From a virus (taxonomy: Duplodnaviria > Heunggongvirae > Uroviricota > Caudoviricetes): DNA of 43,386 nucleotides. The DNA lies in the IMG/VR virus record IMGVR_UViG_2563366976_000013; one strand, written 5' to 3'. Numbering within the stretch: the first letter of the stretch is position 1; every line of letters begins with the position of its first letter. This document shows positions 1 to 27,353 of the stretch, piece after piece. The notes beneath the pieces were generated by a model. It worked only from the letters and a program-made list of their open reading frames with translations. It was not told the origin of the DNA and did no database searches. A program made the translations under genes and the position numbers.

Positions 1-516
1 ATGAAATTTAAAAAATGTCTTCTGCCTGTGGCAATGTTAGCGTCATTCACTCTGGCAGGATGCCAGTCAAATGCTGACGATCATGCTGCCGATGTTTATC
101 AAACCGATCAACTGAATACCAAACAAGAAACTAAAACCGTTAATATTATTTCCATTCTTCCCGCAAAAGTTGCCGTAGACAACTCCCAAAATAAACGGAA
201 CGCACAAGCCTTCGGCGCGCTTATTGGCGCAGTCGCTGGCGGTGTTATCGGCCACAACGTCGGGTCTGGCAGCAATTCCGGAACGACGGCAGGTGCAGTT
301 GGCGGCGGAGCTGTAGGCGCGGCAGCGGGTTCTATGGTGAATGATAAAACCTTAGTGGAAGGTGTTTCTTTAACCTATAAGGAAGGCACCAAAGTGTATA
401 CCTCTACCCAGGTGGGTAAAGAGTGCCAGTTTACGACAGGTTTAGCCGTTGTTATTACCACGACGTATAACGAAACGCGTATTCAGCCAAATACCAAATG
501 TCCTGAAAAGAGCTAA
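1..516 (+). CDS. Outer-membrane lipoprotein with glycine-zipper region; probable host gene (size and sequence reminiscent of E. coli YfgH, not verified)
   Basis: Signal peptide plus lipobox LAGC; Gly/Ala-rich zipper GALIGAVAGGVIGHNVG; full ORF from position 1; precedes prophage boundary. Confidence 0.6.
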   Translation: MKFKKCLLPVAMLASFTLAGCQSNADDHAADVYQTDQLNTKQETKTVNIISILPAKVAVDNSQNKRNAQAFGALIGAVAGGVIGHNVGSGSNSGTTAGAVGGGAVGAAAGSMVNDKTLVEGVSLTYKEGTKVYTSTQVGKECQFTTGLAVVITTTYNETRIQPNTKCPEKS

Positions 517-531
517 TAATCAGGAGGAGTC

Positions 532-1071
532 ATGAAGAAAGTTTTTCTTTGCGCCATCTTAGCCTCCTTAAGCTATCCGGCTATCGCCTCATCATTGCAG
601 GATCAACTCTCTGCTGTCGCAGAAGCGGAACAGCAAGGTAAAAATGAAGAGCAAAGGCAGCATGACGAATGGGTCGCGGAGCGCAACAGGGAAATCCAGC
701 AAGAGAAGCAACGTCGCGCAAATGCCCAGGCCGCCGCTAACAAAAGAGCGGCAACGGCAGCGGCAAATAAGAAAGCTCGTCAGGATAAACTGGACGCCGA
801 AGCCTCTGCGGACAAAAAACGCGATCAAAGTTATGAAGATGAGCTACGCAGCTTAGAGATTCAGAAACAAAAACTGGCGCTGGCGAAAGAAGAAGCCCGC
901 GTTAAGCGAGAAAACGAATTTATCGATCAGGAACTGAAGCACAAAGCTGCGCAAACCGATGTGGTGCAATCTGAAGCTGACGCCAACAGAAATATGACTG
1001 AAGGCGGTCGCGATCTGATGAAAAGCGTGGGCAAAGCAGAAGAGAACAAATCGGACAGCTGGTTTAATTAA
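532..1071 (+). CDS. Secreted charged coiled-coil protein; probable host gene (reminiscent of YfgI, not verified)
   Basis: N-terminal signal peptide MKKVFLCAILASLSYPAIAS; RBS AGGAGG 6 nt upstream; Lys/Glu/Gln/Ala-rich body. Confidence 0.55.
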   Translation: MKKVFLCAILASLSYPAIASSLQDQLSAVAEAEQQGKNEEQRQHDEWVAERNREIQQEKQRRANAQAAANKRAATAAANKKARQDKLDAEASADKKRDQSYEDELRSLEIQKQKLALAKEEARVKRENEFIDQELKHKAAQTDVVQSEADANRNMTEGGRDLMKSVGKAEENKSDSWFN

Positions 1072-1110
1072 TCGATGTTAGTAACTTCAATCCTATAATT
1101 CTTGAAGATA

Positions 1111-1142
1111 AAAAACCCTCTGTAGTAACAGAGGGTTTTGTT
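1111..1142. terminator. Bidirectional rho-independent terminator between host genes and prophage lysis genes
   Basis: Stem CCCTCTG / CAGAGGG with 6-nt loop, flanked by A-run on 5' side and T-run on 3' side. Confidence 0.7.
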
Positions 1143-1288
1143 CATTCATAGTGCAGGGTCAAATCATTCCCACTCAATTATTTACGATAACCATAACCAA
1201 TTGAGTGATAACATTTTTCCAAATCTCAATTTTTCCCGTACCGTTTTATATACCGTCACCGGAAATCAGTACCATGAAAAATGCCATG

Positions 1289-1771
1289 CTATCTGGTCAA
1301 AGTGTCGTACTGTTTTTCGCAGACTCTTCCGGCTTCGGCTGCCCGGTCAGCATACTCTGCCAGTTGTCTGTTTCTCTCGAGAGATTTGCTGAGCACGTCG
1401 GCAAGCAAAACTCCGGTGTCTGCGGCTGACGACCCAGCGCCGACAATGGCGTTATACTGCCTGAGCTGCTCACGGATGGCAAAGAGTTGTTGCTGCAACC
1501 GGCCAGCGCTAGCGGCAGCATCAAGAGCATCATTGCGCGCCTGGTCGATCCTCTGCTGAGCTTCACGTTCATTGGTCACTTTCTCCTGTTCGTAGTACTG
1601 ACGAACTTTGTCTTCTTCGGCTTTGCGGTCTTCTTCCGCCTGAGCATACCCGGCATCGTACTGGCGACTGCCGTGTATATTCCAGGCAACCACTCCTGAT
1701 ATGACCAGAACAGCAAGCACTGCCACGATAAGAAACTGTTTCCAGTATGCTTTTACGAATGCCCAGATCAT
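1289..1771 (-). CDS. Rz-like i-spanin (lysis)
   Basis: N-terminal TM helix [18 protein letters not shown], coiled-coil periplasmic domain, 4-nt ATGA overlap with endolysin stop; position after endolysin. Confidence 0.75.
1297..1533 (-). CDS. Rz1-like o-spanin lipoprotein, fully embedded in Rz in +1 frame
   Basis: Internal start giving [13 protein letters not shown] (lipobox LAGC), Pro-rich mature part; ORF 1297..1572 lies wholly inside Rz. Confidence 0.65.
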   Translation of the reverse strand: MMLLMLPLALAGCSNNSLPSVSSSGSITPLSALGRQPQTPEFCLPTCSANLSRETDNWQSMLTGQPKPEESAKNSTTL

Positions 1772-2397
1772 ACCGCCAGCACCTTACTGGCAGTGATGTA
1801 CCGCGCTCGCCGGTCGTCGATGCCGTTCCGGCCACCATTGATAATCAGAGTTACACGTGCAATATCGCCGGTATACTTCATGCATCCTTTGCTGGCGAAG
1901 AACCACGCCGCGCTACGAGCCGCATATTCGTCCTGCGCCAGCAGTTCAGGGCTCTCCAGCAGGTCAACCTTCAGACCGTTTCCGCAATCACGATAGTTAT
2001 TCAAACCGGTAATCTGGATAAGTCCGCGCCCTCGGTAATTCCAGCCATCACCAGGGGCATTGTTCCCCATGCGTTTGCTGTATACCAGATTTGCGATTGC
2101 GCGCTGGCGCTCAAGTGGCAATGGTGGTTCACCAGCACGGCGCCCCAGTGCATTAGCCTGCCCCTGAGTGAGACGCCCAGCCCGAACGAAGTTAGCCAGT
2201 CCGCTGACACTGTAGTTGAAATTCTCCTGCAACCTGGTGAAGCCCCCAGACTCATGCCCGGCTTGAGCAATAAACATTGCCTGATCTTCTGCTTTGCTGA
2301 TACCAAACTCTTTCATCGCAGAAGTTATATGCGAGAACCAGCGTGCGGCCAGTGCCTCGCTGATACCAGCAGCTCGCTGGAATTGTTTAATCTCCAT
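1768..2397 (-). CDS. Endolysin, glycoside hydrolase family 19 (chitinase-like lysozyme)
   Basis: Motifs [10 protein letters not shown] and [16 protein letters not shown] typical of GH19 phage endolysins; start taken at MEIKQF with GAGGT RBS (ORF track extends further upstream in frame). Confidence 0.8.
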
Positions 2398-2695
2398 GTT
2401 TAGACCTCGATACTTTAAAAATTTGAACGACGTTACCGCGCGTTTTAATAACCGCAGCCAGCATGACAGCGTTGATAATGACCTCAGATAAATCCACAGC
2501 CATTGGCGTACGTAACCAGATTGCATAGGCGACTCGAACAGGAATACTGGCCGCAGCAACAATCAGGAAATAAGCAAGCCATCCTCCCCACCTTCGATGT
2601 TGAGAGCCGTTACGCCGGAATGTGACAACGCGAATTGCTATGCCAGTGCAAATAACTGCATTAGTGATAAGCAAAAAAAACTCATGCGTTACCAT
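2387..2695 (-). CDS. Holin (three predicted TM helices)
   Basis: 102 aa, hydrophobic segments, charged C-terminus; RBS GGGGAG; overlaps endolysin start by 11 nt. Confidence 0.6.
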
Positions 2696-3086
2696 CGTCT
2701 TTTCTCCCCGGAATTAACTCGCGTGGATTATCGGAACGGTGATAGAGCCATATACCAATACGCACAGCGACAATTGCTGACACGAATGCGCCTGCAGAGA
2801 AAACAATCCCTTTTTCAAAAGAGTCCTGCGTGATGGTAGGGATCAGGCTGGCTATGCCGATAAGAATTGATGCTGCTGGTTTGTAAAAGAGAAGGCCGCA
2901 AAGAAAGCTGAGCATCGACAGGAGCACCCGGCGACGGATGGGGTACTCTACTGCAGAGGTAACAAAAATTACCGCCCCAGCCAAAGCCCCTAAAGCAACC
3001 TCCGGAGGGACACCTGCAATAACTGCAGCAAGAGAACCAAAACTAAGCAACTGATTTAATTGCTCACTTGTTACTTGAGCAGACAT
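2682..3086 (-). CDS. Holin-like / antiholin-like polytopic membrane protein
   Basis: 134 aa with about 4 TM segments; RBS AGGAGA 7 nt upstream; first gene of lysis cassette, overlaps next gene by 14 nt. Confidence 0.5.
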   Translation of the reverse strand: MSAQVTSEQLNQLLSFGSLAAVIAGVPPEVALGALAGAVIFVTSAVEYPIRRRVLLSMLSFLCGLLFYKPAASILIGIASLIPTITQDSFEKGIVFSAGAFVSAIVAVRIGIWLYHRSDNPRELIPGRKDDGNA

Positions 3087-3366
3087 ACTTTCTCCTGTTT
3101 ACTATCTATAAGCCAGTCAATTATTGATGACTAAACCCGCATAGTAAACCATATATGAATCATTATTGTTCCATATCATATATCTCAATAAAAGTACTAA
3201 TGATTTTACAGAACGGGCCAGCAGAGTGGGGGCAGTTGTACAGGAACCATAGACTTAATTTTGTATTTAATAATGCTATGGTGTAATAAACCTGAACATG
3301 TATTTAAAATACGTACTGATTCATGATAGAATTCAAAGATAACTTTTCACCAACTCCGTTTTTGAT

Positions 3367-3394
3367 ACCCGCAATATTTTGCGGGCTTTTTTTT
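3367..3394 (+). terminator. Rho-independent terminator oriented for plus-strand (antisense to late operon)
   Basis: Stem CCCGCAA/TTGCGGG followed by T8 on plus strand; minus-strand version lacks U-run. Confidence 0.45.
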
Positions 3395-6300
3395 AACGTT
3401 CTTCCAGAGACTGAACCCGCTCTTTTATCTTATCCATTTCTCTGCGCTGCCATGCTGCCTCGATATAGAATAAGAGATCAGGTCTGACCCCCCATCTAGA
3501 TCCTGCTGGCGTTATTTCAACGCGCTCAATGATGTCTTCTATTACCATCACTGGATTATCATCCTCATCAACAATGATGCTCCCGTCATTATCAGTCAGC
3601 GGCATTTCCCTTTGGCCAGTAATGACGTCATCATATACTGCGGGATAATCGTCATAGCAAAGAAAGGCATAGCGGCATGTTGTGCTTTCTTCTTCCATGA
3701 GTCCGTGAGAAATAAGAACATCACGAAGTTGCTGCGCGATTACACCATGATGTATCCTCGCCCCTTCTTCCCCCTTTATAGCGACAGCGTTCAGCCATTT
3801 ATAAGCGATATACCTGACGTCACCCCAGGCATCCAGCAATGCTTCGTCAGGAGAGACCGGCTCTGTCTTTAATGTTCCGTCACTGGTAACCACAGGATTG
3901 GAGCCAAGATAAACTATCGAGAACCTGTTTCCCGGACCACCAAGAGCATTTACATTATCAAGATAAGGTTTAACATCTCCGTTCTCAAAAAGATGTTCGA
4001 GTGCGTTATATACCGCGCGACGTGGAGTACTGCTTCCGGAACCATGCAACGTTATCATTGCACCATCTGCTGAAGACGTTGTTTCACCGCCGCTAACGAT
4101 TAATCTCTGAGCGGTAACATCATCAGACGGTACTTTCTTCGCAATAATGGCGTAATTACCCTCAAGTTTGACTTCCGCGCGAACTTGTCCTGATGTACCT
4201 GCATGGACAGTCAGTGACTGGACGGCAACATCATCTGTGAAATCAACGGGTACAGGAACCGTCCTCACGCCTGACGTCGACATAAAAGTAGGAAGCGTTC
4301 TGTTAGGAGTGGCTCCGTAGACAAAATCCCTTGAAACAAATTCTTCCTGTTTAATTTTCACCCTGAAACAATACAAATCAGCCGGGTGACCATCGTGAAC
4401 ATAAGGATATTTTCTGTTGTTATCCCCTATGCTCCATGGGTTTAGAAAGTCTTCCCCACCGAAAATGTAGTACAGCCAGTTGTCTTTGATACAAACTGAA
4501 CCAACACCAACCGCAGAGTTAACTATTCCGCCCTGATAAATCTGATCAGTAACATTAACCCACTCTACATTATCCAGACTCCACTCATTGACGTTAACTC
4601 TGGTCATAAATGTTCTTGGATAATTTCCTGCATAACGGTTATCAGGTTCTCCTCCTTCCCACTCACCAAATGCGCGCTCACTGCCAAAAATAATCAGCTC
4701 ATCGCCAACTTTGGCAAAAGGAAGGTTTGAGTGATGAACATTATTTGGGAAGCGAAGAGAATTCCATGATGTACCTAAATCAGAGCTTCTGTGCAATGAA
4801 CTACCGGGTTGAGTACTTAATGTCCCCCTGGTCGTCAGATACAGAATGCCATCATAATATTTTACACATGGCTCAGATGCATTCGCCTCATATTCTACAG
4901 GTATGCGTCTGCGAACAAAGCTACCAGGAGAACCGAAAGCATCAGAGAAATAGAGTATCCCAAGCTCGCGTGGACCAATATCACCATTATGGTAGCCAAC
5001 AGCAAAACTGTTATCGCTAATCGTCGCAAAACTGTGAATCTCAGTAACAGGAGTGCTTCCGTCAACAAAAGAAGGAATAGTTCCAAGACTGGTTTTTCTC
5101 CATGGTGACGAGTGAAATGATGTGCCAAAACTCCAGTATCTACCCTCGTTATTCTGATCCACATCCTGGGTATTTTGCGTCGTAACTGTAAAGGTATTTT
5201 TATCAATAACAGTAGTCACCGTCATATTCCCGGTAACACCTGTAACACCAGAGTTTGAGAAGTTGACAAAATCACCAGCAAATAATCCGTGATCAGTAAT
5301 GCGAATATAAGCGACTTGCTGATTTGCTGCTTTCGTTATACCACCATAAACGCGAAGGCTGCGACTCATTGGGCGATCCCACAACTCTGCAACCTGCAGT
5401 TTATTTCCTCTCACGGTCCGCGTCTCAATTACAGCAAAAAGGCGATTTCTGACAACCCCCATACTCATGCAGTGATAGTTAACTGTGGGATAGTTTTTAT
5501 GTAAATCTGTAAGCCATTCCGGCGTTGTCCAGGTCTTCCCGTCATCTCCTGAGCGAACCCATGCAACATGGAGGTTATTTACACCATGGCGGTCTCCAGC
5601 CATAAAAGGCGCATAGATGACATTGTCATATACAAACGTTTTATCCTGCGTCCAGGCGTTGTACCACGGTGTATCTGTAATTTTAAATAACTCTCCCTGG
5701 ATAAAATCTTCAGAAGCATAAAAAAGAGGCTGGCCCGGTATTCTCTCAAATAAAAAACGAGCATTTTTAAATCGACTGACATCCGGAAGAGTTGATACTT
5801 TAAAAGTAAGCCCTAATCCGTCAATTTTATAACCTGGAGATGAGGCTTCAAGGCACGCGCTTATTGCAGTGGAATCGTCATTTATACCATCACCAACAGC
5901 TCCAAAATCTTTGGGGCTAATAGCATCACGCATTTTATCCTGGAACGTTCGGTACACAGCCCCAGAACCATACTGAATAAACCAACCAAAACCACCAACA
6001 ACTCCGGAGATTGCAGCATCGACATAATTACGCATTGAGCGATTATTTACAGCGTCCTGCTCAAATGATGGATCTGCAAGGTTAGAAATTTTGTTTTGCT
6101 TTGCATCGTAATATTTTGCAAGCAAAGATGGTTTCATCAATGCACGTCTGAACCACCCAAAACATTGCTGGATCAGCATCGTCAGGTAGTCAAAGGCATC
6201 TTCATGCACTTCGGGGAAAAATTTTCCCTGATTGCGAAGGTCTGTGTCCTGCACTACATCAAGCACACGATCTATCGTAATTCGCCATCCAGTAGCAAGC

Positions 6301-6512
6301 GGAGACGGAAGAACCACAGAACCGCCACTATAAGTGCCCGCCCCAGTTACCGTATAACCGGTATCCAGAACCAATTCTGTTACGTTTCCGTTCAGGTCAG
6401 ACACCTGAACAACCAGGTCTGATTTTCTGAAAATTCGAAAAGTATACGGAAACGATGTCGTAACGCCGTTACCGGTGTATTCGTTGTGGTCAACTTCGGT
6501 TGAGACCGTCAT
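3393..6512 (-). CDS. Tailspike: endo-N-acetylneuraminidase (endosialidase, K1 polysialic acid capsule depolymerase) with T7 gp17-like N-terminal adaptor and C-terminal intramolecular chaperone domain
   Basis: Long colinear matches to K1-phage endosialidase as recalled from memory (GQPLFYASEDFIQGELFKITDTPWYNAW, TVNYHCMSMGV, C-terminal ARIHHGVIAQQLRDV...CRYAFLCYDDYP); N-terminal region resembles T7 tail-fibre N-domain; RBS GGAG. Confidence 0.85.
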   Translation of the reverse strand: MTVSTEVDHNEYTGNGVTTSFPYTFRIFRKSDLVVQVSDLNGNVTELVLDTGYTVTGAGTYSGGSVVLPSPLATGWRITIDRVLDVVQDTDLRNQGKFFPEVHEDAFDYLTMLIQQCFGWFRRALMKPSLLAKYYDAKQNKISNLADPSFEQDAVNNRSMRNYVDAAISGVVGGFGWFIQYGSGAVYRTFQDKMRDAISPKDFGAVGDGINDDSTAISACLEASSPGYKIDGLGLTFKVSTLPDVSRFKNARFLFERIPGQPLFYASEDFIQGELFKITDTPWYNAWTQDKTFVYDNVIYAPFMAGDRHGVNNLHVAWVRSGDDGKTWTTPEWLTDLHKNYPTVNYHCMSMGVVRNRLFAVIETRTVRGNKLQVAELWDRPMSRSLRVYGGITKAANQQVAYIRITDHGLFAGDFVNFSNSGVTGVTGNMTVTTVIDKNTFTVTTQNTQDVDQNNEGRYWSFGTSFHSSPWRKTSLGTIPSFVDGSTPVTEIHSFATISDNSFAVGYHNGDIGPRELGILYFSDAFGSPGSFVRRRIPVEYEANASEPCVKYYDGILYLTTRGTLSTQPGSSLHRSSDLGTSWNSLRFPNNVHHSNLPFAKVGDELIIFGSERAFGEWEGGEPDNRYAGNYPRTFMTRVNVNEWSLDNVEWVNVTDQIYQGGIVNSAVGVGSVCIKDNWLYYIFGGEDFLNPWSIGDNNRKYPYVHDGHPADLYCFRVKIKQEEFVSRDFVYGATPNRTLPTFMSTSGVRTVPVPVDFTDDVAVQSLTVHAGTSGQVRAEVKLEGNYAIIAKKVPSDDVTAQRLIVSGGETTSSADGAMITLHGSGSSTPRRAVYNALEHLFENGDVKPYLDNVNALGGPGNRFSIVYLGSNPVVTSDGTLKTEPVSPDEALLDAWGDVRYIAYKWLNAVAIKGEEGARIHHGVIAQQLRDVLISHGLMEEESTTCRYAFLCYDDYPAVYDDVITGQREMPLTDNDGSIIVDEDDNPVMVIEDIIERVEITPAGSRWGVRPDLLFYIEAAWQRREMDKIKERVQSLEER

Positions 6513-6616
6513 GTTAAATCTCCAGATAGTCGCAGCACCCGTTGCGCCGCATATCTGGTTATTCTATTACCTGGAAAACCACATATGGATAGAAAGGCTG
6601 TAAATACGAATAGATA

Positions 6617-6631
6617 TTACCTTTCAGGTAA
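6617..6631. promoter_or_regulatory. Operator-type palindrome TTACCtttcaGGTAA
   Basis: Perfect 5-5-5 inverted repeat; same motif family as cI/cro operators. Confidence 0.5.
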
Positions 6632-6668
6632 TTTGCAAAACGTGCTGGATAGCAAACAAATTATTTGC

Positions 6669-6688
6669 TACTGTATAAATATACAGTT
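6669..6688 (+). promoter_or_regulatory. LexA (SOS) box TACTGTATAAATATACAGTT
   Basis: 18/20 match to consensus TACTGTATATATATACAGTA, CTGT-N8-ACAG core intact; 20 nt upstream of ATG at 6708. Confidence 0.7.
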
Positions 6689-6707
6689 ATTGCATGGAGA
6701 AGATAAG

Positions 6708-6965
6708 ATGCAGCAGTATCACTATCCACTGGAAGACGGATTTACCGAAAGGATTCACACGCCGGGAGGCGTCAGGTCACTGGTGGAGGGATCGCACTTG
6801 ATGAAATTACTCCGGGATCTCGATAAGGATGGATTTAATGTCGATGGCCCACTTGCCGAACTGACTGCACTGATTAACTACGTCACCAGCTCACAGATGT
6901 CTATGCAGGATCTGCAAACACATCTCGACTATTGTGCCGAACAATTACGAAAACAAACCAGATAA
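6708..6965 (+). CDS. Small SOS-controlled antirepressor-like protein (standalone version of the Ant C-terminal domain)
   Basis: 85 aa from ATG 6708 with RBS GGAGAAG; aligns with C-terminal about 80 aa of the three Ant paralogs (PL..G..IH.P.GV..L.E.S.LM.LL..L..DG..V.G..AELT....Y......DLQTH..Y). Confidence 0.6.
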   Translation: MQQYHYPLEDGFTERIHTPGGVRSLVEGSHLMKLLRDLDKDGFNVDGPLAELTALINYVTSSQMSMQDLQTHLDYCAEQLRKQTR

Positions 6966-6968
6966 GGT

Positions 6969-7011
6969 TTGCAATTACCAAATGGAGTGCTTATATTTAC
7001 CTTTGCGGTAA
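6969..7011 (+). promoter_or_regulatory. Promoter for ant1 leader with overlapping operator
   Basis: -35 TTGCAA (6969-6974), 17-bp spacer, -10 TATATT (6992-6997), palindrome TTACCtttgcGGTAA 6997-7011 over the start site. Confidence 0.55.
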
Positions 7012-7038
7012 ATTTACATCGCACTCCTCTTGTGCCAT

Positions 7039-7090
7039 AGTAATCAGGCACTGGCAAAATCCAGTGCCGGGATTGGTCTCCCGGATTACT
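7039..7090 (+). ncRNA. Conserved structured leader RNA element upstream of ant1 (three-way junction fold), followed by leader terminator
   Basis: AGTAATC...GATTACT outer stem enclosing hairpins GGCACTGG-caaaat-CCAGTGCC and CCGGGA-ttggtc-TCCCGG; near-identical copy in ant2 leader (11160-11213, minus strand). Confidence 0.45.
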
Positions 7091-7104
7091 ACAGAGGCAC
7101 ATAT

Positions 7105-7124
7105 GCCGCATAAGCGGTTTTTTT
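7105..7124 (+). terminator. Leader terminator/attenuator upstream of ant1
   Basis: Short GC stem GCCGC-ataa-GCGG followed by T7 run; analogous stem plus T7 in ant2 leader. Confidence 0.45.
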
Positions 7125-7278
7125 ATGTGTAAAGCGCACCTATTCTATGGTGGGCTGTGTGGGGGCACCGAAAGGTGCGCCGGGTTCCTTTGTAGCCGGT
7201 AAGACCAACTCTGCACAGTTCACCACCATCTGATTGGTCTCAGCGGTGGTGATTAACCTAACTACAAAGGTGATCGCC

Positions 7279-7971
7279 ATGAATACCAAACCTTCCATCT
7301 TTTCCTTTGAGTCATCCTGCCAGATCCGTATGTTCATGATTGACGGAGAACCTTGGTTTGTCACCAAAGATGTGTGCAATGCTTTGAATATTGATGTTAC
7401 ACAAGCGAGAAAACTTGATAAAAAAGGCTGGAACAAAAAGGGGCTGTATTCAATACAGACCCCTGGTGGAATACAAGAACTATCCATCGTTTCAGAATCA
7501 GGTCTCTACATCCTTATTCTGCGTTGCAAAGAGGCAATGACTGAGGGAACGAGAGCATTCAGATTTCTTGAATGGGTTACAGGCGAAGTACTTCCTCAGA
7601 TCCGCCGCACCGGAAGCTACATTAAAAACTCGCTCCCGCAGGAAGAACGCATAAAGATGGTTGCCGACCAGGTAGCCAACGCCACGGCGTCAGCAGTAAT
7701 GCAGGCGATGAAGATAGAGAACAAAACCTACAGCGCCCCACTGAAGCCCGGCTACCGCAGCCTGATTCATTCGCCGTCTGGTGTTCTCGGCCTGACGGAG
7801 AACTCACTGCTGATGAATCTGCTGAACCAGTTACAGGACGACGGGCACGACGTATCGGGCGCGGCGGCGGAGCTGACCACCATGTTCTGCTACATCGTCG
7901 GTGTGAGCAAATGCCTGCGTGATATCCAGACCCACGCGGAATACATCAACGACAAGGCAGGGTTCTTCTGA
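7279..7971 (+). CDS. Antirepressor paralog 1: Bro-N/KilA-N-type N-terminal domain plus shared Ant C-terminal domain
   Basis: IDGEPWFVTKDVCNAL motif (Bro-N-like); C-terminal 100 aa near-identical to the other two paralogs; start at ATG 7279 with RBS AAAGGTGA (ORF track begins at upstream TTG 7234). Confidence 0.75.
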   Translation: MNTKPSIFSFESSCQIRMFMIDGEPWFVTKDVCNALNIDVTQARKLDKKGWNKKGLYSIQTPGGIQELSIVSESGLYILILRCKEAMTEGTRAFRFLEWVTGEVLPQIRRTGSYIKNSLPQEERIKMVADQVANATASAVMQAMKIENKTYSAPLKPGYRSLIHSPSGVLGLTENSLLMNLLNQLQDDGHDVSGAAAELTTMFCYIVGVSKCLRDIQTHAEYINDKAGFF

Positions 7972-8014
7972 CGGGCGGCGGCACAGGGATGTGCCTTTAA
8001 ATAATTCTGTACGA

Positions 8015-8057
8015 TTGCAGACCGGGGGTGAATAGCGTACTATTACCTTAAAGGTAA
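8015..8057 (+). promoter_or_regulatory. Promoter/operator module (J element) upstream of YafO-like cassette 1
   Basis: -35 TTGCAG, 17-bp spacer, -10 TACTAT ending at first T of palindrome TTACCttaaaGGTAA (8043-8057). Confidence 0.5.
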
Positions 8058-8099
8058 ACCTGTTTTTATTTTATACCTGTAACTTACCGGAGATTAAAG

Positions 8100-8426
8100 A
8101 TGACAAAACTTGGATTCGTGATGAGAGGTCCGGTAAGAAGCGGAACTCATGCAAAGCGTAGCAAGAGTCGTATTTTTACTGGTAAGGTTGTAGCACGTAA
8201 ATCAGCTATTGGCTCGTTCAATAGTGAAAATGCGGCATTGCGCCATATTTTTATCAGCACAAAGCCAAGAGCATCCGCTGATGTGCATACAATGTCTATT
8301 CCTATCACAAAGAATATAAAGCGGATAAAAAAGCTCTCATCTGCAGAATCAAAAGAGATATCTTTCCGCCAGCTTAACTCATTAGAAACGCATATGAAGG
8401 AAGAGGAATTCGATGTTTTTGAGTGA
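8100..8426 (+). CDS. Putative antitoxin/partner protein of YafO-like toxin 1 (basic, no recognised fold)
   Basis: 108 aa, RBS GGAG, overlaps toxin start by 14 nt (translational coupling); weak similarity to partner of cassette 2 (ARKSAIGSFNSE vs ARRSFNGSVE). Confidence 0.35.
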   Translation: MTKLGFVMRGPVRSGTHAKRSKSRIFTGKVVARKSAIGSFNSENAALRHIFISTKPRASADVHTMSIPITKNIKRIKKLSSAESKEISFRQLNSLETHMKEEEFDVFE

Positions 8427-8925
8427 GTATAGCGGGAAGGTTATACCTACTGGTGAGTTTAAAACTGATGACTTTCTGATTTCGCTAAAAGATGCTTTTA
8501 AACAACACTGGCGTCATGGTCATCATCCTGATCTGGGAAAAGATACTCTTTTTGAAAGACCAGAGGAAGTATTAGGCTTCCATCTCAGAAAGGTTCATGT
8601 CAATATTGGTGAATATGCATCATATTCATACTCATGTACTGAACAGTGTTGGGATGAGTGGTCATATGGATTGATTGATGAACAAGGAAATTACAGGCCA
8701 AAACCAACCAGTAACGCATATCTCATATATGCAGTCAATGAAATAAGAGATGCAGCCTTACTAGCTTATTGGGACCCGCCCGCACACACCAAAGCTAACG
8801 CAAAAGTTTGGATGGATTCCGTATTGAATTTCACAAAATTATTTCATGAACGAACGAATACAGCTCCACTTAGTAGAAATGTTTATCCGTGGGATTATTC
8901 GTACAAATCCAAAAAGCCTGCATAG
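8413..8925 (+). CDS. YafO-like toxin domain protein, copy 1 (type II toxin, ribosome-dependent mRNA interferase family, by motif)
   Basis: Motifs W.HGHHPDLGKD..FERP...L.FHLRKVHV and AYLIYAV...DAALLAYWDPPAH resemble YafO from memory; paralog of 9440..9985; RBS AAGAGGAA. Confidence 0.5.
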   Translation: MFLSEYSGKVIPTGEFKTDDFLISLKDAFKQHWRHGHHPDLGKDTLFERPEEVLGFHLRKVHVNIGEYASYSYSCTEQCWDEWSYGLIDEQGNYRPKPTSNAYLIYAVNEIRDAALLAYWDPPAHTKANAKVWMDSVLNFTKLFHERTNTAPLSRNVYPWDYSYKSKKPA

Positions 8926-8935
8926 TAGTTTTTTA

Positions 8936-9155
8936 TGGACGAAACAAAAGTCAGTGCTACACTCATTGACGCCACATTGAGGTGGCTTATAGATGGAAAT
9001 TTCACAATGAAAAAAGCATTTGCTGCACTGTTCGTTTTGTTGTCTCTGGTAGCGTCAACTCAGGCCTTTGCCGGTCGTTGTCAGCACGACAGCGACACTG
9101 CTGCTGACGGCTCCCGCTGCGGTGGGCGTTCTGCGGATTCCCGCCCGGGCGGCGG
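8936..9155 (+). repeat. Direct repeat copy A (220 bp, one mismatch to copy B at 10007..10226)
   Basis: Identical sequence block containing small signal-peptide ORF; seen directly. Confidence 0.9.
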
Positions 9156-9174
9156 CACAGGGATGTGCCTTTAA
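9007..9174 (+). CDS. Small secreted Cys-containing peptide (55 aa) or gene fragment, copy 1
   Basis: Signal peptide MKKAFAALFVLLSLVASTQAFA then about 30-aa mature part with Cys residues; ends inside J junction sequence; weak RBS. Confidence 0.3.
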   Translation: MKKAFAALFVLLSLVASTQAFAGRCQHDSDTAADGSRCGGRSADSRPGGGTGMCL

Positions 9175-9205
9175 ATAATTCTGTACAGATTGCAGGTGAA
9201 TAGCG

Positions 9206-9225
9206 TACTATTACCTCAAGGGTAA
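9206..9225 (+). promoter_or_regulatory. -10 TACTAT plus operator palindrome TTACCtcaagGGTAA upstream of cassette 2
   Basis: Same J module as at 8038-8057. Confidence 0.5.
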
Positions 9226-9285
9226 ACGGATTGGTTTCATTTTTATTAATCCGTGTAATGAACTTATGAGATATGAGGTAATGTC

Positions 9286-9465
9286 ATGCGAAACGAAAAA
9301 TTGCAGATGCGTAGAGCGCAAGCTGCCGCAAGACGTTCTTTCAATGGAAGCGTAGAGTACGTAAAAGTTACTATGACAAAAGATCACGCAAGTCGCGTAT
9401 CCCGCGCTTTCTTTGATTCTCGTAACAATAAGGAAAATTATGAGTTCGTCTGCGTCGCAGAATGA
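9286..9465 (+). CDS. Putative antitoxin/partner of YafO-like toxin 2 (59 aa, below ORF-track cutoff)
   Basis: ATG 9286 with RBS GAGGT 8 nt upstream; overlaps toxin 2 start by 26 nt; manual translation MRNEKLQMRRAQAAARRSFNGSVEYVKV... Confidence 0.3.
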   Translation: MRNEKLQMRRAQAAARRSFNGSVEYVKVTMTKDHASRVSRAFFDSRNNKENYEFVCVAE

Positions 9466-9985
9466 TAAAAATCAAATTGTCAGATATAAGGGTCGAGTAT
9501 TGCATACGCAAAATTTCTCGGCCCTTTGTGCATCTGATCTTGAGCTGAAGAAAGTATCTGATGCCTTTACCCAGTATTGGAAAACGGGATACCATCCATC
9601 TCTTGGTAAAGATGCTGCATTTGCTCGTCCGACAGAAATGCTTAAACTAAATGTCAGGCATACTCATGTCGATAACCAAGACTATATTCCAGAAGATAGT
9701 GATAAAAAACACACTGGTAAAAAATCATCTTGGGATGCATGGAAAAATATAGCGTCTGTGCAAGTAAAATGCATACCAACAAGTGATTGCTTTTTAGTTT
9801 ATTCGGTAAATCACAATCGTGATGCGCTGGTTATGTTTTTTGTTGACGCAGATGCCCACAACATAACTGAGCAAGAAGAGTTTAAAGAGGCAGCAATCAC
9901 TATCAGTTATCAATTCTTTGAGAAAACAAAAACAGAACCAATGCCTTTAGAAGAAGATCTTTTTTCTGATAAATGGAAGGAATAG
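9440..9985 (+). CDS. YafO-like toxin domain protein, copy 2
   Basis: Motifs W.TGYHPSLGKD..FARP...L.LNVRHTHV and CFLVYSV...DALVMFFVDADAH; start at ATG 9440 with RBS AAGGA; followed by terminator. Confidence 0.5.
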   Translation: MSSSASQNDKNQIVRYKGRVLHTQNFSALCASDLELKKVSDAFTQYWKTGYHPSLGKDAAFARPTEMLKLNVRHTHVDNQDYIPEDSDKKHTGKKSSWDAWKNIASVQVKCIPTSDCFLVYSVNHNRDALVMFFVDADAHNITEQEEFKEAAITISYQFFEKTKTEPMPLEEDLFSDKWKE

Positions 9986-10005
9986 CCCGCAGCGCGGGCT
10001 TTTTT
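9984..10005 (+). terminator. Rho-independent terminator after toxin 2
   Basis: AGCCCGC-agc-GCGGGCT stem followed by T5. Confidence 0.6.
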
Positions 10006-10006
10006 G

Positions 10007-10226
10007 TGGACGAAACAAAAGTCAGTGCTACACTCATTGACGCCACATTGAGGTGGCTTATAGATGGAAATTTCACAATGAAAAAAGCATTTGCTGCACT
10101 GTTCGTTTTGTTGTCTCTGGTAGCGTCAACTCAGGCCTTTGCCGGTCGTTGTCAGCACGACAGCGACACTGCTGCTGACGGCTCACGCTGCGGTGGGCGT
10201 TCTGCGGATTCCCGCCCGGGCGGCGG
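10007..10226 (+). repeat. Direct repeat copy B
   Basis: 220 bp, one mismatch vs 8936..9155. Confidence 0.9.
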
Positions 10227-10312: not shown

Positions 10313-10969
10313 TCAGAAGAACCCTGCTTTGTCGTTGATGTATTCCGCGTGCGTCTGGATATCACGCAGGCATTTGCTCACACCGACGATGTAGCAGAAC
10401 ATGGTGGTCAGCTCCGCCGCCGCGCCCGATACATCGTGCCCGTCTTCCTGCAACTGGTTCAGCAAATTCATCAGCAGTGAGTTCTCCGTCAGGCCGAGAA
10501 CACCAGACGGCGAATGAATCAGGCTACGGTAGCCGGGCTTCAGTGGGGCGCTGTATTCTTTTTTGTCTTCCAGCTTGATCGCCTCCATAATGGCGGGCAT
10601 GAAGCCTGACAAGACCTTCTCCACTTTTGTTTCTTGTTGTCTTAAACGTTTCTCGCATTCAATGAAGTAGCGTCGCACCTGGCGACCTTTTTCGTTACGC
10701 TCGACCATCGCCAGCTCTTTGGCTGTATCAAGGGTGAGGTGGTACTCTTTGCGGTTGTGGCCGCCTCTACCAGATGTTTGCTTTCCCAAATTGGAAAGCA
10801 AAATATAGTCTTGATTTTCAATGAATTCGTATTCTGATATGCGATTTGTAATCCATGCTGCAAACACCTTTTTAACACCTAAAAAAGCGTGCAGATCGCG
10901 GGCATTACAAAGTAGGGCTGTTTCGTTAGATATAGTGCCGTTGAATACGGGGATGAGTTGAGCGTTCAT
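10313..10969 (-). CDS. Antirepressor paralog 2: AntA-type N-terminal domain plus shared Ant C-terminal domain
   Basis: N-terminus [23 protein letters not shown], middle [20 protein letters not shown]; C-terminus near-identical to ant1 and ant3; RBS GGAGACG. Confidence 0.75.
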
Positions 10970-11125
10970 GATGGCGTCTCCACTTAGCGAATTACATCAC
11001 CACCGCTGAGACCAATCAGATGGTGGTGAACTGAACGGAGTTGGTCTTACCGGCCTAAGTGGTACCGGCGTCCTTTCGGACCCCCATTCAGCCCACCATA
11101 ATTCTGGCATGACTGTGCTATACGC

Positions 11126-11285
11126 ATAAAAAAACCACGTCTGGCGTGGTATGCGCCACTTAGTAATCCGGGAGACCAATCCCGGCACTGGATTTTGCCA
11201 GTGCCCGATTACTATGGCACAAGAGGAGTGCGATGTAAATTTACCGAAAAGGTAATGATAAACGCTAAGAAATATTAAAATCAAC
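11126..11285 (-). promoter_or_regulatory. ant2 promoter, operator (11241-11255), structured leader (11160-11213) and leader terminator (11126-11150)
   Basis: Mirror image of ant1 control region with near-identical structured element; palindrome TTACCgaaaaGGTAA. Confidence 0.5.
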
Positions 11286-18363: not shown

Positions 18364-18827
18364 TATTTTCTCTCCATGTGAAATCTGTGGAAATTAAGAC
18401 CAAGAGCACCATAAGGCGCGGCTTCTTCAAGCCTGAATCCAAGCCAGTGCAGCCATGCTTTGGCAACATGGTTTCGCTCGTCGACATAGTTTTCCAGGCG
18501 CGGATAAACTGCCAGCATCTGCTGCAATACAGGGCGGCAGTGGCGAAGAAATGTCTTCTGATATTTTTCGATACGGCTGGTTCCGACCAGCCAGGGCGTA
18601 CCATTGCCACCGATCATTGACGCCGGAGATACGCCAAACATGGTTACCAGTTCTCCGTTCGCGAACCCTGACCAGGCCATAGTCGCAGTGCGCAGACCAA
18701 CACGCAGCGCATCTTTGGTAGTCATCAGCGATACCGCATACAGTTCGTCAATATCAGCCTGACGAACATCCGGCAAAATCATCTGAAGATGCTCTTCGGT
18801 TGCGGGAATAATTTGAACATCGATCAT
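18363..18827 (-). CDS. Virion protein (T7 gp13-class by size/position)
   Basis: 154 aa between tail-tube B-like and gp14-like genes. Confidence 0.35.
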   Translation of the reverse strand: MIDVQIIPATEEHLQMILPDVRQADIDELYAVSLMTTKDALRVGLRTATMAWSGFANGELVTMFGVSPASMIGGNGTPWLVGTSRIEKYQKTFLRHCRPVLQQMLAVYPRLENYVDERNHVAKAWLHWLGFRLEEAAPYGALGLNFHRFHMERK

Positions 18828-21298
18828 CAGAATCCCCCAACAGTAAGGCGAGGAATAACGGCAAGAACAGACAGCGGCAACGGATCAAGCTGACGGATTT
18901 TTACACGTCCGTTTTTGCCCCAGTTACTGTCCAGTTTCACTTCTACTTTTCCGGTAGCATCATCAACAGGATCATCGTAGAACTCGAATTCACGCTGTGG
19001 ATATTCGTACCATTTACCGCCGGGCGTAGTCGCCCAGATGCCGCGACTGGCATTCACAACCAGAGTAACGGACGGGATCACCTGTTTTTTGTCCAGCAGC
19101 GTTTCCTGTCCGTTAATGTTGATATCCAGTGTTTCGAATTCAGCAGTTATTGGCAGGCCGATGTGCACTACAGCCCCCGGTGATTCCAGCGTGACGGCAC
19201 CTCCGGAAACCACTTTCTGTGGTTCCACGTTCGCATCAGAGAGAATGTTTACGGTCTGGCCTTCAAGATGAGACAGGCCTCCAAATGTCCGGCGCGCCAT
19301 CTGCCAGTTCGTGGTGGCCACATTCCTGAGGGATGGCGGGACGTTCCTGTTAGCACGAACCACTACAGCGGTATTGCTGGTTACAGAAATAATGTCGCAA
19401 CGTAATTCTTTTGACACCTCATCGCCAGTATCAGGATCAGTTCCGGTATAAGGGAACTGTAGTTGCGCGCCGACATCACTACTGGTGAAGTACGCACCAC
19501 CAGAAACACTGATTGTATATTCCGCGCGGTAATCCCATTCGCCAGAACCACCAGTGATGATCATCGTTCTGTCAGACGTATTTCTTCCATCATAGCTAAG
19601 GCCAGAATCAACAAAGAAAGCATCTTCATCGCTGGTAAATAAACGGCTGGACAGTCGCTCGATGTATCTCACTGTTTGCCCGTTAACGGTTCGGTTAACG
19701 ACGAAATACACCGCATCTTCATTGCCTTCGCTGATACTGCATGTGCTTTCATATTTTCCGGTACTGGATTGTGGTGCCCATGCAAAAACCTGCTGATCAC
19801 GCAAATAGGTCATCACCAGTAATTTACCGTCATCACGGATGCAGAAGGCGCTGGAGTAAGGGACTATTGAGAAGCACCAGTCAACAATGCTGTGCTTCTG
19901 AAAAAGATGATTGGCAAGGATAGTAAGGTCGTTCCCCTGATAGCCGTCAACATCGAATGAGTAGGCCAGATCACGGACAACACTGCCTTTCTCCTGGACG
20001 AACAGAGCAATATTCGCCACGGCAATTGGTGGGACATTGCTCGAGCCATTTGATCCCTGAGAGCTGAATGCAAATGATGATGGGGTAAGCACTTTGTTCT
20101 GGTCGCCAGTGATGACGTACTCACCTCCGGAAGTCAGCGCCACCAGCGAACCAACATCAATCAGGTGGCGGATCTCATTAACCTGACGCCCGGCATAGGT
20201 GTAGATAATTCTGTCGTCATCCTGCGTAGGATTGCTTTTGCCAAAATCCTTATAATCCCCGGTACGGCTGGCCCAGATAGTCTGAGGAAACGCAGTCGAT
20301 GCGGCGAAGTAAAGACGTTGTTGATAATAAACAACAGTGCCAGGATAACCATTAACACTGTTCCAGGCATATTTAGCCCATTTATAGCTGGCATTATCCT
20401 CGCCAACTACCTGCGAAGGGATATAGGAAATCACCTCGGCAGTTGCAGTAGTTCCATTTGCAGCAGAGATACGGGCAATGCCAAAACCACTGTGCAGATA
20501 CTCCCACTCAATGCCGGTATCATCATCACCGGATCCGCCCCAGCCATCCCATGATGTGCCTTCTGTATGCGAAGGGCGCAAAGTGCCTGTTTTGCCTACT
20601 GTAACGGCGCGATAGTAGTTACTGTCTGCACGGCGAATATCGCCAATTGACGTACTCTTACTGGTTTCCCATACCGGCACAGAATCCACTGCAGGCTGTT
20701 CCAGATAGAACAATTTGCCTACCTGCTCCGCGCCAAAAATAGAGGCGCTTGCCGTTAACGTAATTGTCCCGGTGCTGGCGCTGGCATAAACCGTCACTGA
20801 CTCGTCAATATTGATATCTTCAAATGGTCCGTTCTTCGTTACCACATCAACCAGTTGCCAGTTGTCATGCGCATAGCGACGCAACTCTTTCGGCGGGTAT
20901 GCCGGATGAACAAGCGTAAGCACGTCGGCGCTTTGCGTGAATTTAATTCGGAACAGATCGGCTTCAGTATATGGCGTGGCAATTTCATAAATAACATTGC
21001 TGCTGTTCAGCACCAACGCACCATCTTTGATAACGCGCATGTACTGGTGTCCGAACTCCAGAGCATAGGTCTGAACCGTCGAGAACTGGAACGGGATCAG
21101 GCGGCATTTCCGATTTGGGTATTTGGCGGCACCGACAAAACGCGTACCTGGTCGATTCTCAACGCCGCCATACTGCCGCACGATAAAGTTATCGCACTTG
21201 CGCAATGCCACCTGGTACTTCGCCATGTCAATACGCCCGTACAACGACGGTCCAATCTCACCACCGGCAAAGCTGGGCTGGATCCAACTGATAGCCAT
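18827..21298 (-). CDS. Tail tubular protein B-like (nozzle)
   Basis: 823 aa, follows 201-aa adaptor-like protein; T7-like order gp11-gp12-gp13-gp14. Confidence 0.5.
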   Translation of the reverse strand: MAISWIQPSFAGGEIGPSLYGRIDMAKYQVALRKCDNFIVRQYGGVENRPGTRFVGAAKYPNRKCRLIPFQFSTVQTYALEFGHQYMRVIKDGALVLNSSNVIYEIATPYTEADLFRIKFTQSADVLTLVHPAYPPKELRRYAHDNWQLVDVVTKNGPFEDINIDESVTVYASASTGTITLTASASIFGAEQVGKLFYLEQPAVDSVPVWETSKSTSIGDIRRADSNYYRAVTVGKTGTLRPSHTEGTSWDGWGGSGDDDTGIEWEYLHSGFGIARISAANGTTATAEVISYIPSQVVGEDNASYKWAKYAWNSVNGYPGTVVYYQQRLYFAASTAFPQTIWASRTGDYKDFGKSNPTQDDDRIIYTYAGRQVNEIRHLIDVGSLVALTSGGEYVITGDQNKVLTPSSFAFSSQGSNGSSNVPPIAVANIALFVQEKGSVVRDLAYSFDVDGYQGNDLTILANHLFQKHSIVDWCFSIVPYSSAFCIRDDGKLLVMTYLRDQQVFAWAPQSSTGKYESTCSISEGNEDAVYFVVNRTVNGQTVRYIERLSSRLFTSDEDAFFVDSGLSYDGRNTSDRTMIITGGSGEWDYRAEYTISVSGGAYFTSSDVGAQLQFPYTGTDPDTGDEVSKELRCDIISVTSNTAVVVRANRNVPPSLRNVATTNWQMARRTFGGLSHLEGQTVNILSDANVEPQKVVSGGAVTLESPGAVVHIGLPITAEFETLDININGQETLLDKKQVIPSVTLVVNASRGIWATTPGGKWYEYPQREFEFYDDPVDDATGKVEVKLDSNWGKNGRVKIRQLDPLPLSVLAVIPRLTVGGF

Positions 21299-21903
21299 CA
21301 GGACAACCTCGCAATGGTAAACTCGTCAACCGGTGGCTGTGGTTCCTGTGATTCATTCTGGCTATGCGAGCCAGCACTAAGAATCACGCGATTGTACATA
21401 TTGAGAGCAAATGTACCGAGATCCGCATTCCCAGTCAGCGCCATGTTAATGGCTGCCGCAAGACGCCAGGCCAGCGCCTCCATAAAAATGGCATCAAACA
21501 TGTTTACATCTGAAACGCGAGAGACATACTTGAGCCATGCCTGCGGCTGGTCTGTGTAGATCAATTTTCCTGTTCCGTTGGTGTCTGCACCAACTTCGTA
21601 CTGAACGCGCATTGCTGCTGTTGGATTGCGTACACCAGGAAGCATAATTTCAGTAATGCGCAGACAATCTGACGGGTACTGGTACGCATATTCCCAGTCA
21701 GGCGGTGGATTGCTCGTATCTGCAAGCGCCACGCGTTTGGTAGCAAAGTTCCAGTCAAAATCAGAAAGCACAGCATCACGGCAGGCCTCAAAGTGCAGCG
21801 AACATTCCCCCGCTTCCTTGCTGGCTTCCGTCAGGCTGTTAATGCTGCGGCTGTTGCCAATATTGGACAGCGCACGATTGCAGATCTCTACTACAGAGGC
21901 CAT
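21298..21903 (-). CDS. Tail tubular protein A-like / adaptor
   Basis: 201 aa, between capsid module and tail tube B-like. Confidence 0.4.
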   Translation of the reverse strand: MASVVEICNRALSNIGNSRSINSLTEASKEAGECSLHFEACRDAVLSDFDWNFATKRVALADTSNPPPDWEYAYQYPSDCLRITEIMLPGVRNPTAAMRVQYEVGADTNGTGKLIYTDQPQAWLKYVSRVSDVNMFDAIFMEALAWRLAAAINMALTGNADLGTFALNMYNRVILSAGSHSQNESQEPQPPVDEFTIARLS

Positions 21904-27277: not shown

Positions 27278-27353
27278 CAGCAGGACGCCATTGCGATGAC
27301 TTCATGCTGTAAACCCGTACAGCCACGGAAGGCATAACTCATTGCTTCCAGTT

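Follow-up and report, generated by a model that had tools for sequence, protein, structure and literature searches.

The tailspike gene described here lies on the - strand of the window, by which we mean the whole stretch of 43,386 nt that was analysed, and it is carried by a Uetakevirus (epsilon15/phiV10-like) prophage that sits between yfgI and guaA (Table 1). According to the ORF list and the translation, its frame of 1039 aa is unbroken from an ATG which is also the start annotated in ZX5 and in RefSeq. A terminator consensus scan scored the hairpin behind the stop codon on the + strand. From this stop codon to the holin gene, the ORF list contains no frame that reaches 60 aa. The core sequence at the left prophage boundary is identical to the attP/attB core of phiV10, epsilon15 and ZX5 (PMC9782041). 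An HTH repressor and RecT are also encoded in the window; together with the att core and the tyrosine integrase at the opposite end, they bear out the proposal of the earlier note that the gene belongs to a temperate element. The best matches to the window as a whole were TL-2011b, phiV10 and EC.W1-9, with a backbone identity of 95-97%.

Table 1 Features of the tailspike locus and of the prophage ends (positions refer to the window)
Feature	Position	Strand	Basis
att core ATTGAGTGGGAATGATT, left prophage boundary adjoining yfgI	1162..1178	-	exact match, single, 0 expected by chance
GC-rich hairpin directly after the tailspike stop codon, terminator-like, flanked by an A-run and a T-run	3368..3385	not assigned	
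Complete tailspike gene, endosialidase (predicted) with Uetakevirus anchor	3393..6512	-	ORF list and translation; 1039 codons and stop
C-terminal intramolecular chaperone domain, aa 877-1039	3396..3884	-	PF13884 Peptidase_S74, aa 877-937
2.39-kb cassette, gene nt 699-3091, 99.3% DNA identity to CUS-3 siaK1	3422..5814	-	megablast, blastn
End_tail_spike, trimeric stalk (triple beta-helix), aa 722-876	3885..4349	-	PF12219, E 1.4e-77
End_beta_propel, catalytic six-bladed beta-propeller, aa 272-721	4350..5699	-	PF12217, E 2.7e-232
End_beta_barrel inserted in the propeller, aa 383-465	5118..5366	-	PF12195, E 3.2e-46
End_N_terminal extension, aa 205-271	5700..5900	-	PF12218, E 5.9e-32
Neck/extension, aa 166-204, where backbone-derived DNA stops	5901..6017	-	common to a subgroup of Uetakevirus-type tailspikes
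Virion-attachment anchor, epsilon15/phiV10 type, aa 1-165	6018..6512	-	sequence identity, hhalign, AF2 model
Shine-Dalgarno-like GGAG, 7 nt 5' of the ATG	6520..6523	-	direct reading of the sequence
Tyrosine integrase, opposite prophage end; window stops at its start codon	42136..43386	-	Arm-DNA-bind_3, Phage_int_M, Phage_integrase

The tailspike is already known, and a near-identical gene (full-length nt identity 99.6%) has been published and annotated as ORF7 of vB_EcoP_ZX5 (MW722083). The two proteins are of equal length and share 1032 of 1039 aa (99.3%), the seven substitutions being D89E, S169A, K339E, V539A, I866T, I991M and V1033I, none of them catalytic. Three parts of the ZX5 protein, a T7-like N-terminus, an endosialidase and a chaperone, have been described previously (Pathogens 2022, PMC9782041). 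ZX5 is temperate, forms plaques and was isolated on an O87:H52:K1 host (PMC9782041); it belongs to the same genus, Uetakevirus, and shares the att core and the integration site at the guaA 3' end with the prophage studied here. Outside the tailspike gene the prophage is mosaic: the high-identity match to ZX5 is limited to positions 1162-10138 of the window, and for the virion genes TL-2011b and phiV10 are the closer matches.

Decay is common among E. coli prophages, and IS insertions were found in related prophages, in strain 23CRST038 even inside this gene, so that the gene might be a relic in a defective prophage from which no functional tailspike is made. We consider this very unlikely, since the ORF is intact, is as long as its counterpart in the plaque-forming ZX5 and differs from it by the seven substitutions only, every catalytic residue is conserved, and the window contains full-length ORFs for portal, capsid, tail, internal-core, terminase, lysis, integrase and repressor proteins.

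The earlier note had described the protein as colinear with the endosialidases of K1 phages up to and including the C-terminal chaperone. This was confirmed by the complete Pfam domain order, in which the N-terminal extension is followed by the beta-propeller with its inserted beta-barrel, the stalk and the chaperone, the scores of PF12218, PF12217, PF12195 and PF12219 all lying far above the Pfam cut-offs. Endosialidase searches likewise gave strong similarity to both K1F (62% identity over 844 aa) and CUS-3 (95% over the whole enzyme). In the phmmer search against PDB, the endoNF structures 1v0e and 3gvl matched aa 205-876 with E = 0, the alignment of the stalk to 1v0e extending to the C-terminus of the latter, and the endoNF chaperone domain 3gw6 matched aa 757-1038 with E 1.3e-92. 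In K1F endoNF (Kayfunavirus; 1v0e, 3gvl, 3gw6), the domains from the N-terminal extension through to the chaperone follow one another in the same order, and its catalytic and chaperone residues are conserved in the tailspike. The catalytic residues are present throughout: K1F H350, R549, E581, R596 and R647, whose catalytic and substrate-binding roles are known (PMC12632334), align with H309, R515, E547, R562 and R613, all of them identical. The alignment also places K1F S911 and K916 at S877 and K882, both conserved. Ser877 and Lys882 are presumably, as in the endoNF chaperone, the self-cleavage pair of this domain, and self-cleavage after Ser877 is predicted.

Among the closest known endosialidases is siaK1 of CUS-3 (Lederbergvirus, P22-like, CP000711), which is a temperate phage of K1 E. 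coli, as the prophage described here presumably is. Over aa 234-876, a stretch that includes the catalytic propeller and the stalk, 638 of 643 residues are identical. The record of the CUS-3 endosialidase (strain RS218, K1) holds direct-assay evidence of endo-alpha-sialidase activity. Judging from these near-identical and homologous proteins, the tailspike is probably an endosialidase that cuts the alpha-2,8-polysialic acid of the K1 capsule.

The distribution of the gene among sequenced strains bears on the same question. Of 5,426 complete E. coli genomes, 72 contain a full-length copy, which in these is annotated in RefSeq as an endosialidase; IHE3034, APEC O1, CE10 and IAI39 are among them. 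In none of the complete genomes searched did the matches cover more than 89-90% of either half of the window. Carriers with K1 in their name include CE10 (O7:K1) as well as APEC strains, two of type O1:K1:H7 and one of type O2:K1:H7. In strain N25, a CSF isolate and the closest carrier, the gene is 99.9% identical and the kpsMT-neuDBACES-kpsSCUDEF locus is complete. Support for the K1 host proposed in the earlier note comes from such carriers and from the host range of ZX5, not from the window itself. Eight of the 60 listed carriers recurred in a sample of 60 of the 329 neuS-positive genomes, where ~0.7 would be expected for carriage unrelated to K1. The corresponding count for the CUS-3-type gene (181 genomes) is inflated, as the shared cassette alone makes up 81% of the query, and was not used as a measure of prevalence. 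The neuS of 14 genomes shares no more than 80-90% identity with that of K1, and these genomes may be of the K92 type. The enzyme might accordingly be directed against a polysaccharide other than K1, such as the alternating alpha-2,8/2,9 polysialic acid of K92, in which case the K1 status of the host would not be implied. Such a target seems extremely improbable in view of the near-identity of the propeller and stalk to the endosialidase from the K1 strain RS218, the growth of ZX5 on a K1 host, and the presence of named K1 strains and of a verified K1 locus among the carriers.

The N-terminal part of the protein was assessed separately. Over aa 1-165, the anchor is 68-71% identical to its counterparts in epsilon15, phiV10 and SPN1S, and over residues 1-~200 the identity to epsilon15 gp20 is about 70%. 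Residues 1-205 of the phiV10 protein have been taken as the anchor of the genus (PMC10408124). The region aa 1-204 is common to ~40 representative clusters which have differing C-terminal domains. No match to the P22 Head_binding domain (PF09008) was obtained in the N-terminal 204 aa even at E <= 10, whereas CUS-3, which has this domain in place of the Uetakevirus anchor, gave E 1.5e-67 as a control. The earlier view that the N-terminus is not of the P22 type is thereby upheld, and the resemblance to T7 which the same note proposed holds for the fold but not for the family. When the isolated N-terminus was scanned with Pfam, hits being accepted to E <= 10, PF03906 reached only 16.0 bits (E 0.0099, cut-off 25.2) and covered no more than aa 135-161; the controls gave 249 bits for T7, 63 bits for K1F and 15.5 bits for epsilon15 gp20. 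In the precomputed annotations, PF03906 was absent from the relatives of the anchor and present in all relatives of T7 gp17. BLASTP of the tailspike against T7 gp17 was not significant (E 0.30) and no alignment with the K1F N-terminus was found.

Because BLASTP gave nothing usable and Pfam only a sub-threshold hit, the relationship to T7 was tested by profile comparison and with a structure model. With hhalign, the anchor matched the T7 gp17 family with a probability of 90.7% and E 1.2e-6 over 137 columns, aligning aa 11-171 with aa 10-160 of T7 gp17. The AF2 monomer of the anchor is confident at residues 10-85 (pLDDT ~88) and poor beyond residue 85, with a mean pLDDT of 66. The 20 best Foldseek matches of this model against PDB (E 3.9e-11 to 6.5e-3, 15 of them with E <= 0.001; probability 0.99-1.00) were all fibre anchors or tail-complex chains from tail structures of podophages, among them Carin-1 (8ck1, 47% identity), PhiM1, LME-1, T7 gp17, Kp7, Kp9, P-SCSP1u and HRP29. 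The matches to T7 gp17 in 7boz, 7ey9 and 8dsp had E-values of 1e-4 to 1e-5, the model being confident at residues 10-85 only. These matches were judged by probability, E-value and consistency of the hit list rather than by TM-score, the high rmsd being due to the floppy helical part. The anchor is therefore an outlying member of the T7 gp17 N-terminal superfamily, with a kinship to T7 that is remote and exists at the superfamily level only, and the precise label for the N-terminus is epsilon15/phiV10 (Uetakevirus) anchor. That it is a gp17 anchor proper of the T7 group (Autographiviridae), derived for instance from a lytic phage like K1F whose K1F-type endosialidase moved into a prophage, can practically be dismissed: the endoNF of K1F, a lytic Autographiviridae phage, does have a genuine PF03906 T7 gp17 anchor together with a Tail_spike_N domain, and the ZX5 paper uses the term 'phage T7 like tail fibrin' for the N-terminus (PMC9782041), but against this and the weak PF03906 match stand the sub-threshold score, the BLASTP results, the close relatives of the anchor, which are all of the epsilon15/phiV10 type or from other non-Autographiviridae podoviruses, and the catalytic part, which is 99% identical to CUS-3 and 62% to K1F. 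A T7-like virion module is also encoded in the window, and its T7-type portal (PF12236), gp14-family core protein (T7_gp14) and tail tubular proteins are at most suggestive of docking of the Uetakevirus anchor at the adaptor-nozzle interface. Tail proteins of 201 aa and 823 aa are encoded at 21298-21903 and 18827-21298.

Judged by its sequence, the tailspike gene is a mosaic in which an anchor typical of the genus is joined to an endosialidase cassette at the motif FGAxGDGxxDD, which opens the segment aa 205-271 at the junction of the modules. A conserved anchor combined with a swappable receptor-binding domain is the usual design of Uetakevirus and Lederbergvirus tailspikes. In epsilon15 gp20 (Salmonella phage) and the phiV10 tail fibre, the gene position and the prophage backbone are as here, but the receptor-binding parts are O-antigen-specific beta-helix enzymes and not endosialidases. 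Both genomes also have serotype-conversion genes beside the tailspike gene or close to it, in epsilon15 a beta-polymerase directly downstream and in phiV10 the O-acetyltransferase gene oac. CUS-3 has the phase-variable capsule O-acetyltransferase gene neuO downstream, whereas the CUS-3-like DNA in the window stops inside the gene. The 'eliminase' of EC.W1-9, a sister Uetakevirus with a backbone 97% identical (nt) up- and downstream, is 92% identical over aa 1-227, the FGAxGDGxxDD junction included. After the junction it continues with a domain of the pectate-lyase fold (PF12708) instead of an endosialidase, which shows cassette exchange at the same point. The DNA identity to EC.W1-9 (97.4%) stops at gene nt 596, only 17 of 41 residues are identical to CUS-3 at aa 193-233, and near-identity to CUS-3 begins at aa 234. 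A simple two-parent recombinant between an EC.W1-9-like backbone and CUS-3 was rejected as the whole explanation, since neither parent is matched by gene nt 597-698 (aa 200-233) or by nt 3092-3401.

The Uetakevirus-type and CUS-3-type endosialidase genes were seen together in roughly 15 genomes; in IHE3034, for instance, they form direct repeats ~166 kb apart. As a tentative explanation, which we hold to be somewhat doubtful, the nearly identical genes of the two types may be kept so by ongoing recombination or gene conversion between unrelated prophages that often share one K1 chromosome, with FGAxGDGxxDD as the crossover hotspot.

Taken together, the gene very probably codes for the only receptor-binding tailspike of a temperate podovirus of the epsilon15/phiV10 type, inserted at the guaA 3' end in E. 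coli, and the tailspike would have a mechanism like that of its homologues. By analogy with these, the tailspike would fold as a homotrimer with the aid of the C-terminal chaperone domain, which would then cut itself off after Ser877 and free ~162 residues. The anchor (aa 1-~165) would dock the trimer onto the T7-like tail of the virion and the beta-propeller, with H309, R515, E547, R562 and R613, would cleave alpha-2,8-polysialic acid, so that the phage could make its way through the K1 capsule and reach the outer membrane.

The significance of these results goes little beyond confirmation. The tailspike is a usable and well-precedented candidate K1 capsule depolymerase, and its gene is a candidate marker of a host lineage that is, or recently was, K1. 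It is also an example of tailspike modularity, with one enzyme cassette occurring on anchors of the P22 type, the T7 type (K1F) and the epsilon15 type. If gene conversion between the prophages does take place, K1 E. coli lysogens would be a mixing vessel which spreads one depolymerase cassette across phage genera.

The tailspike gene is a single long ORF with an ATG start (window 3393..6512, minus strand; GGAG 7 nt upstream of the ATG) that encodes 1039 aa. The complete set of endosialidase domains was found in it by Pfam in colinear order (table). Searches of solved structures matched aa 205-876 with endoNF, the endosialidase of the lytic phage K1F (1v0e, 3gvl; E = 0), and aa 757-1038 with the endoNF chaperone domain (3gw6; E 1.3e-92); the phi92 endosialidase (4hiz) was also matched. 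The coordinates, length and colinearity with K1-phage endosialidases proposed in an earlier note, which was made from the sequence alone, are therefore correct. Full-length endoNF is 62% identical to the tailspike over 844 aa. The K1F residues H350, R549, E581, R596 and R647, which are catalytic or substrate-binding according to a deep mutational scan (PMC12632334), all have identical counterparts in the alignment (H309, R515, E547, R562 and R613). Q330, D331, H527, S528, K585 and N699 are likewise identical, and catalytic residues, the absence of which was to speak against the assignment, are thus all present. EndoNF S911 and K916, which we take to be the Ser/Lys pair for self-cleavage of the chaperone domain, align to tailspike S877 and K882. 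Self-cleavage there would free approximately 162 residues.

The gene is a mosaic. Uetakevirus backbone DNA (97.4% identical to phage EC.W1-9) enters the gene from its upstream side, reaches gene nt 596 and picks up again 282 nt past the stop codon. With siaK1, the endosialidase gene of CUS-3, a P22-like Lederbergvirus prophage from the K1 strain RS218, gene nt 699-3091 share 99.3% identity. The stretches nt 597-698 (aa 200-233) and nt 3092-3401 matched neither the EC.W1-9 backbone nor CUS-3 DNA. Protein homology to CUS-3 starts at aa 193, with 17 of 41 residues identical through aa 233 and 638 of 643 thereafter. The modules join at an FGAxGDGxxDD motif that is common to the endosialidase N-terminal extension and pectate-lyase-fold tailspikes. 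The EC.W1-9 tailspike shares aa 1-227 (92%) but continues with a PF12708 'eliminase' domain instead of an endosialidase, and approximately 40 representative protein clusters have aa 1-204 in common and differ in their C-terminal parts. This fits the pattern of a genus-conserved anchor and an exchangeable receptor-binding domain known in Uetakevirus and Lederbergvirus (PMC10408124). The architecture may extend beyond E. coli: in the 277-aa protein P0010 of Kluyvera cryocrescens, an anchor of the Uetakevirus type (79% identical) is followed by the PF12218 endosialidase N-terminal extension.

The N-terminal anchor (aa 1-165) had been described as T7-type. As a resemblance this holds, since both profile–profile comparison and structure matches link the anchor to T7 gp17; as membership of PF03906 it does not. 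The PF03906 score was 16 bits (E 0.0099; cut-off 25.2) and covered aa 135-161 only, compared with 249 bits for T7 gp17, 63 bits for K1F and 15.5 bits for epsilon15 gp20, and BLASTP against T7 gp17 gave E 0.30. The P22 Head_binding control detected the CUS-3 N-terminus at 1.5e-67. The nearest relatives over aa 1-165 are the tailspikes of epsilon15, phiV10, SPN1S and TL-2011b (67-71%); remoter ones occur in Pseudomonas, Xanthomonas, Vibrio, Bordetella BPP-1-like and Pelagibacter podoviruses. The module is very widespread, with 26,273 cluster representatives reaching E <= 0.001. When a profile of 57 anchor relatives was compared with one of 20 T7 gp17-type N-termini, the two were colinear across 137 columns (90.7% probability, E 1.2e-6), T7 aa 10-160 aligning with aa 11-171 of the query. 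An AlphaFold model of the anchor (mean pLDDT 66; about 88 for residues 10-85) was used in a PDB search, in which the best 20 matches were all fibre anchors or tail-complex chains of solved podophage tails, 15 of them at E <= 0.001. They included Carin-1 (8ck1, 47% identity), PhiM1, LME-1, T7 gp17 (8dsp, 7ey9, 7boz), Kp7, Kp9, P-SCSP1u and HRP29. The anchor is thus best placed in the epsilon15/phiV10 family and not in PF03906, and the profiles and the model point to a distant relative of the T7 gp17 anchor that would work like it.

The temperate nature of the element was borne out. E. coli core DNA (yfgH, yfgI; present in 5,422 of 5,426 genomes) occupies window 1-1071, and an exact copy of ATTGAGTGGGAATGATT, the published att core of phiV10, epsilon15 and ZX5, all of which use the 3' end of guaA as integration site (PMC9782041), lies at 1162-1178. 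From there the prophage extends to the window end and carries a DUF2514 protein in the Rz-like spanin position, a GH19 endolysin, two holins, the tailspike, the antirepressor modules, T7-like internal core and tail proteins, capsid, portal (PF12236), terminase and replication genes, an HTH repressor, RecT, a RecE-like nuclease and a tyrosine integrase. The best phage matches were TL-2011b, EC.W1-9, phiv142-3 and phiV10 (95-97% identity), and the closest full-length match of the tailspike gene is in vB_EcoP_ZX5 (ZX5), classified as Uetakevirus. Given the att core, integrase, repressor, gene content and phage matches, the element is a temperate epsilon15/phiV10-like podovirus.

Features of the tailspike and of the prophage (aa, tailspike residues; other positions, window)
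Feature	Position	Remark
End_N_terminal	aa 205-271	Pfam
End_beta_propel	aa 272-721	Pfam, E 2.7e-232
End_beta_barrel	aa 383-465	Pfam, inserted within End_beta_propel
End_tail_spike	aa 722-876	Pfam
Peptidase_S74	aa 877-937	Pfam, 'chaperone of endosialidase'
isrK sRNA and C4 antisense RNA, first pair	7048-7230 (+)	Rfam RF01394, RF01695, above gathering score
BRO-N antirepressor ORF	7234-7971 (+)	directly downstream of first pair
YafO-toxin-like ORF	8413-8925 (+)	PF13957, E 7e-4, under cut-off
YafO-toxin-like ORF	9413-9985 (+)	E 1.2e-5, 25.8 bits
AntA antirepressor ORF	10313-10969 (-)	directly downstream of second pair
isrK sRNA and C4 antisense RNA, second pair	11019-11204 (-)	RF01394, RF01695, above gathering score
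Tyrosine integrase	42136-43386	

Adjoining the tailspike gene, the prophage seems to hold two facing P1 immI-like c4/ant modules with an accessory island between them. The island (8100-9985, plus strand) contains two YafO-toxin-like ORFs; an ORF of strain APEC E18055 like the first is labelled type II toxin-antitoxin YafO family toxin in RefSeq. A phage-borne tRNA-Arg (anticodon TCT; 27115-27191, plus strand) lies between the portal and terminase genes and is followed by an unannotated 306-aa ORF (27342-28262, TTG start) without a Pfam match. The early region, close to the integrase, has an sRNA-Xcc1 match (RF02221; 41323-41412, plus strand; 62.9 bits, gathering score 53). The 306-nt spacer 3' of the tailspike gene (3087-3392) holds no capsule- or O-antigen-modifying gene, no CUS-3 match and, over most of its length (to 3112), no Uetakevirus backbone match. 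Related phages differ in this: neuO with heptanucleotide repeats lies downstream of the CUS-3 endosialidase gene, a serotype-conversion polymerase gene directly downstream of the epsilon15 tailspike gene, and an oac O-acetyltransferase is encoded in the phiV10 genome.

The window contains no capsule locus, and the link to K1 was sought in relatives. The full-length tailspike gene occurs in 72 of 5,426 complete E. coli genomes, among them CE10 (O7:K1), IAI39, IHE3034, APEC O1, APEC O18, two APEC O1:K1:H7 strains and one APEC O2:K1:H7 strain. The CSF isolate N25, whose copy is 99.9% identical, has a complete K1 locus with kpsMT-like ABC transporter genes, neuD-like acetyltransferase, neuB, neuA-like, neuC, neuE-like and alpha-2,8-polysialyltransferase genes, and then kpsSCUDEF. 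Only 329 genomes (6%) have the polysialyltransferase gene. Eight of the 60 listed tailspike carriers were among 60 of these 329 genomes sampled at even spacing; the expected number is approximately 11 if every carrier is K1 and approximately 0.7 if carriage and K1 are unrelated. The strain on which ZX5 was isolated is O87:H52:K1 (PMC9782041). Among relatives, carriage of the gene is strongly tied to K1. In strain 23CRST038 (NZ_AP045810.1, 3431589-3436021) an IS3-family insertion splits the same gene, a case of a prophage endosialidase inactivated in a lysogen.

The observation is confirmed and its interpretation supported; the tailspike itself is already known. ZX5 ORF7, 99.6% identical with 7 aa differences, was described with a 'phage T7 like tail fibrin' N-terminus, an endosialidase middle and an intramolecular chaperone C-terminus (PMC9782041), and RefSeq labels the E. 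coli copies 'endosialidase catalytic beta-propeller domain-containing protein'. Small additions are the exact module boundaries, the near-identity of the cassette to CUS-3, the graded answer on T7 and the co-residence of both gene types. Endosialidase genes of the Uetakevirus and CUS-3 types are frequently found in one K1 chromosome (among others CE10, APEC O18, EC69, N1, N21, N54, ST95-32, F11). In IHE3034 (NC_017628.1) the two genes (2715108-2718053 and 2884245-2887364, same strand) form direct repeats of approximately 2.4 kb with 99% identity, approximately 166 kb apart, on which gene conversion or rearrangement could act. Such co-residence may explain the near-identity of the two gene types.
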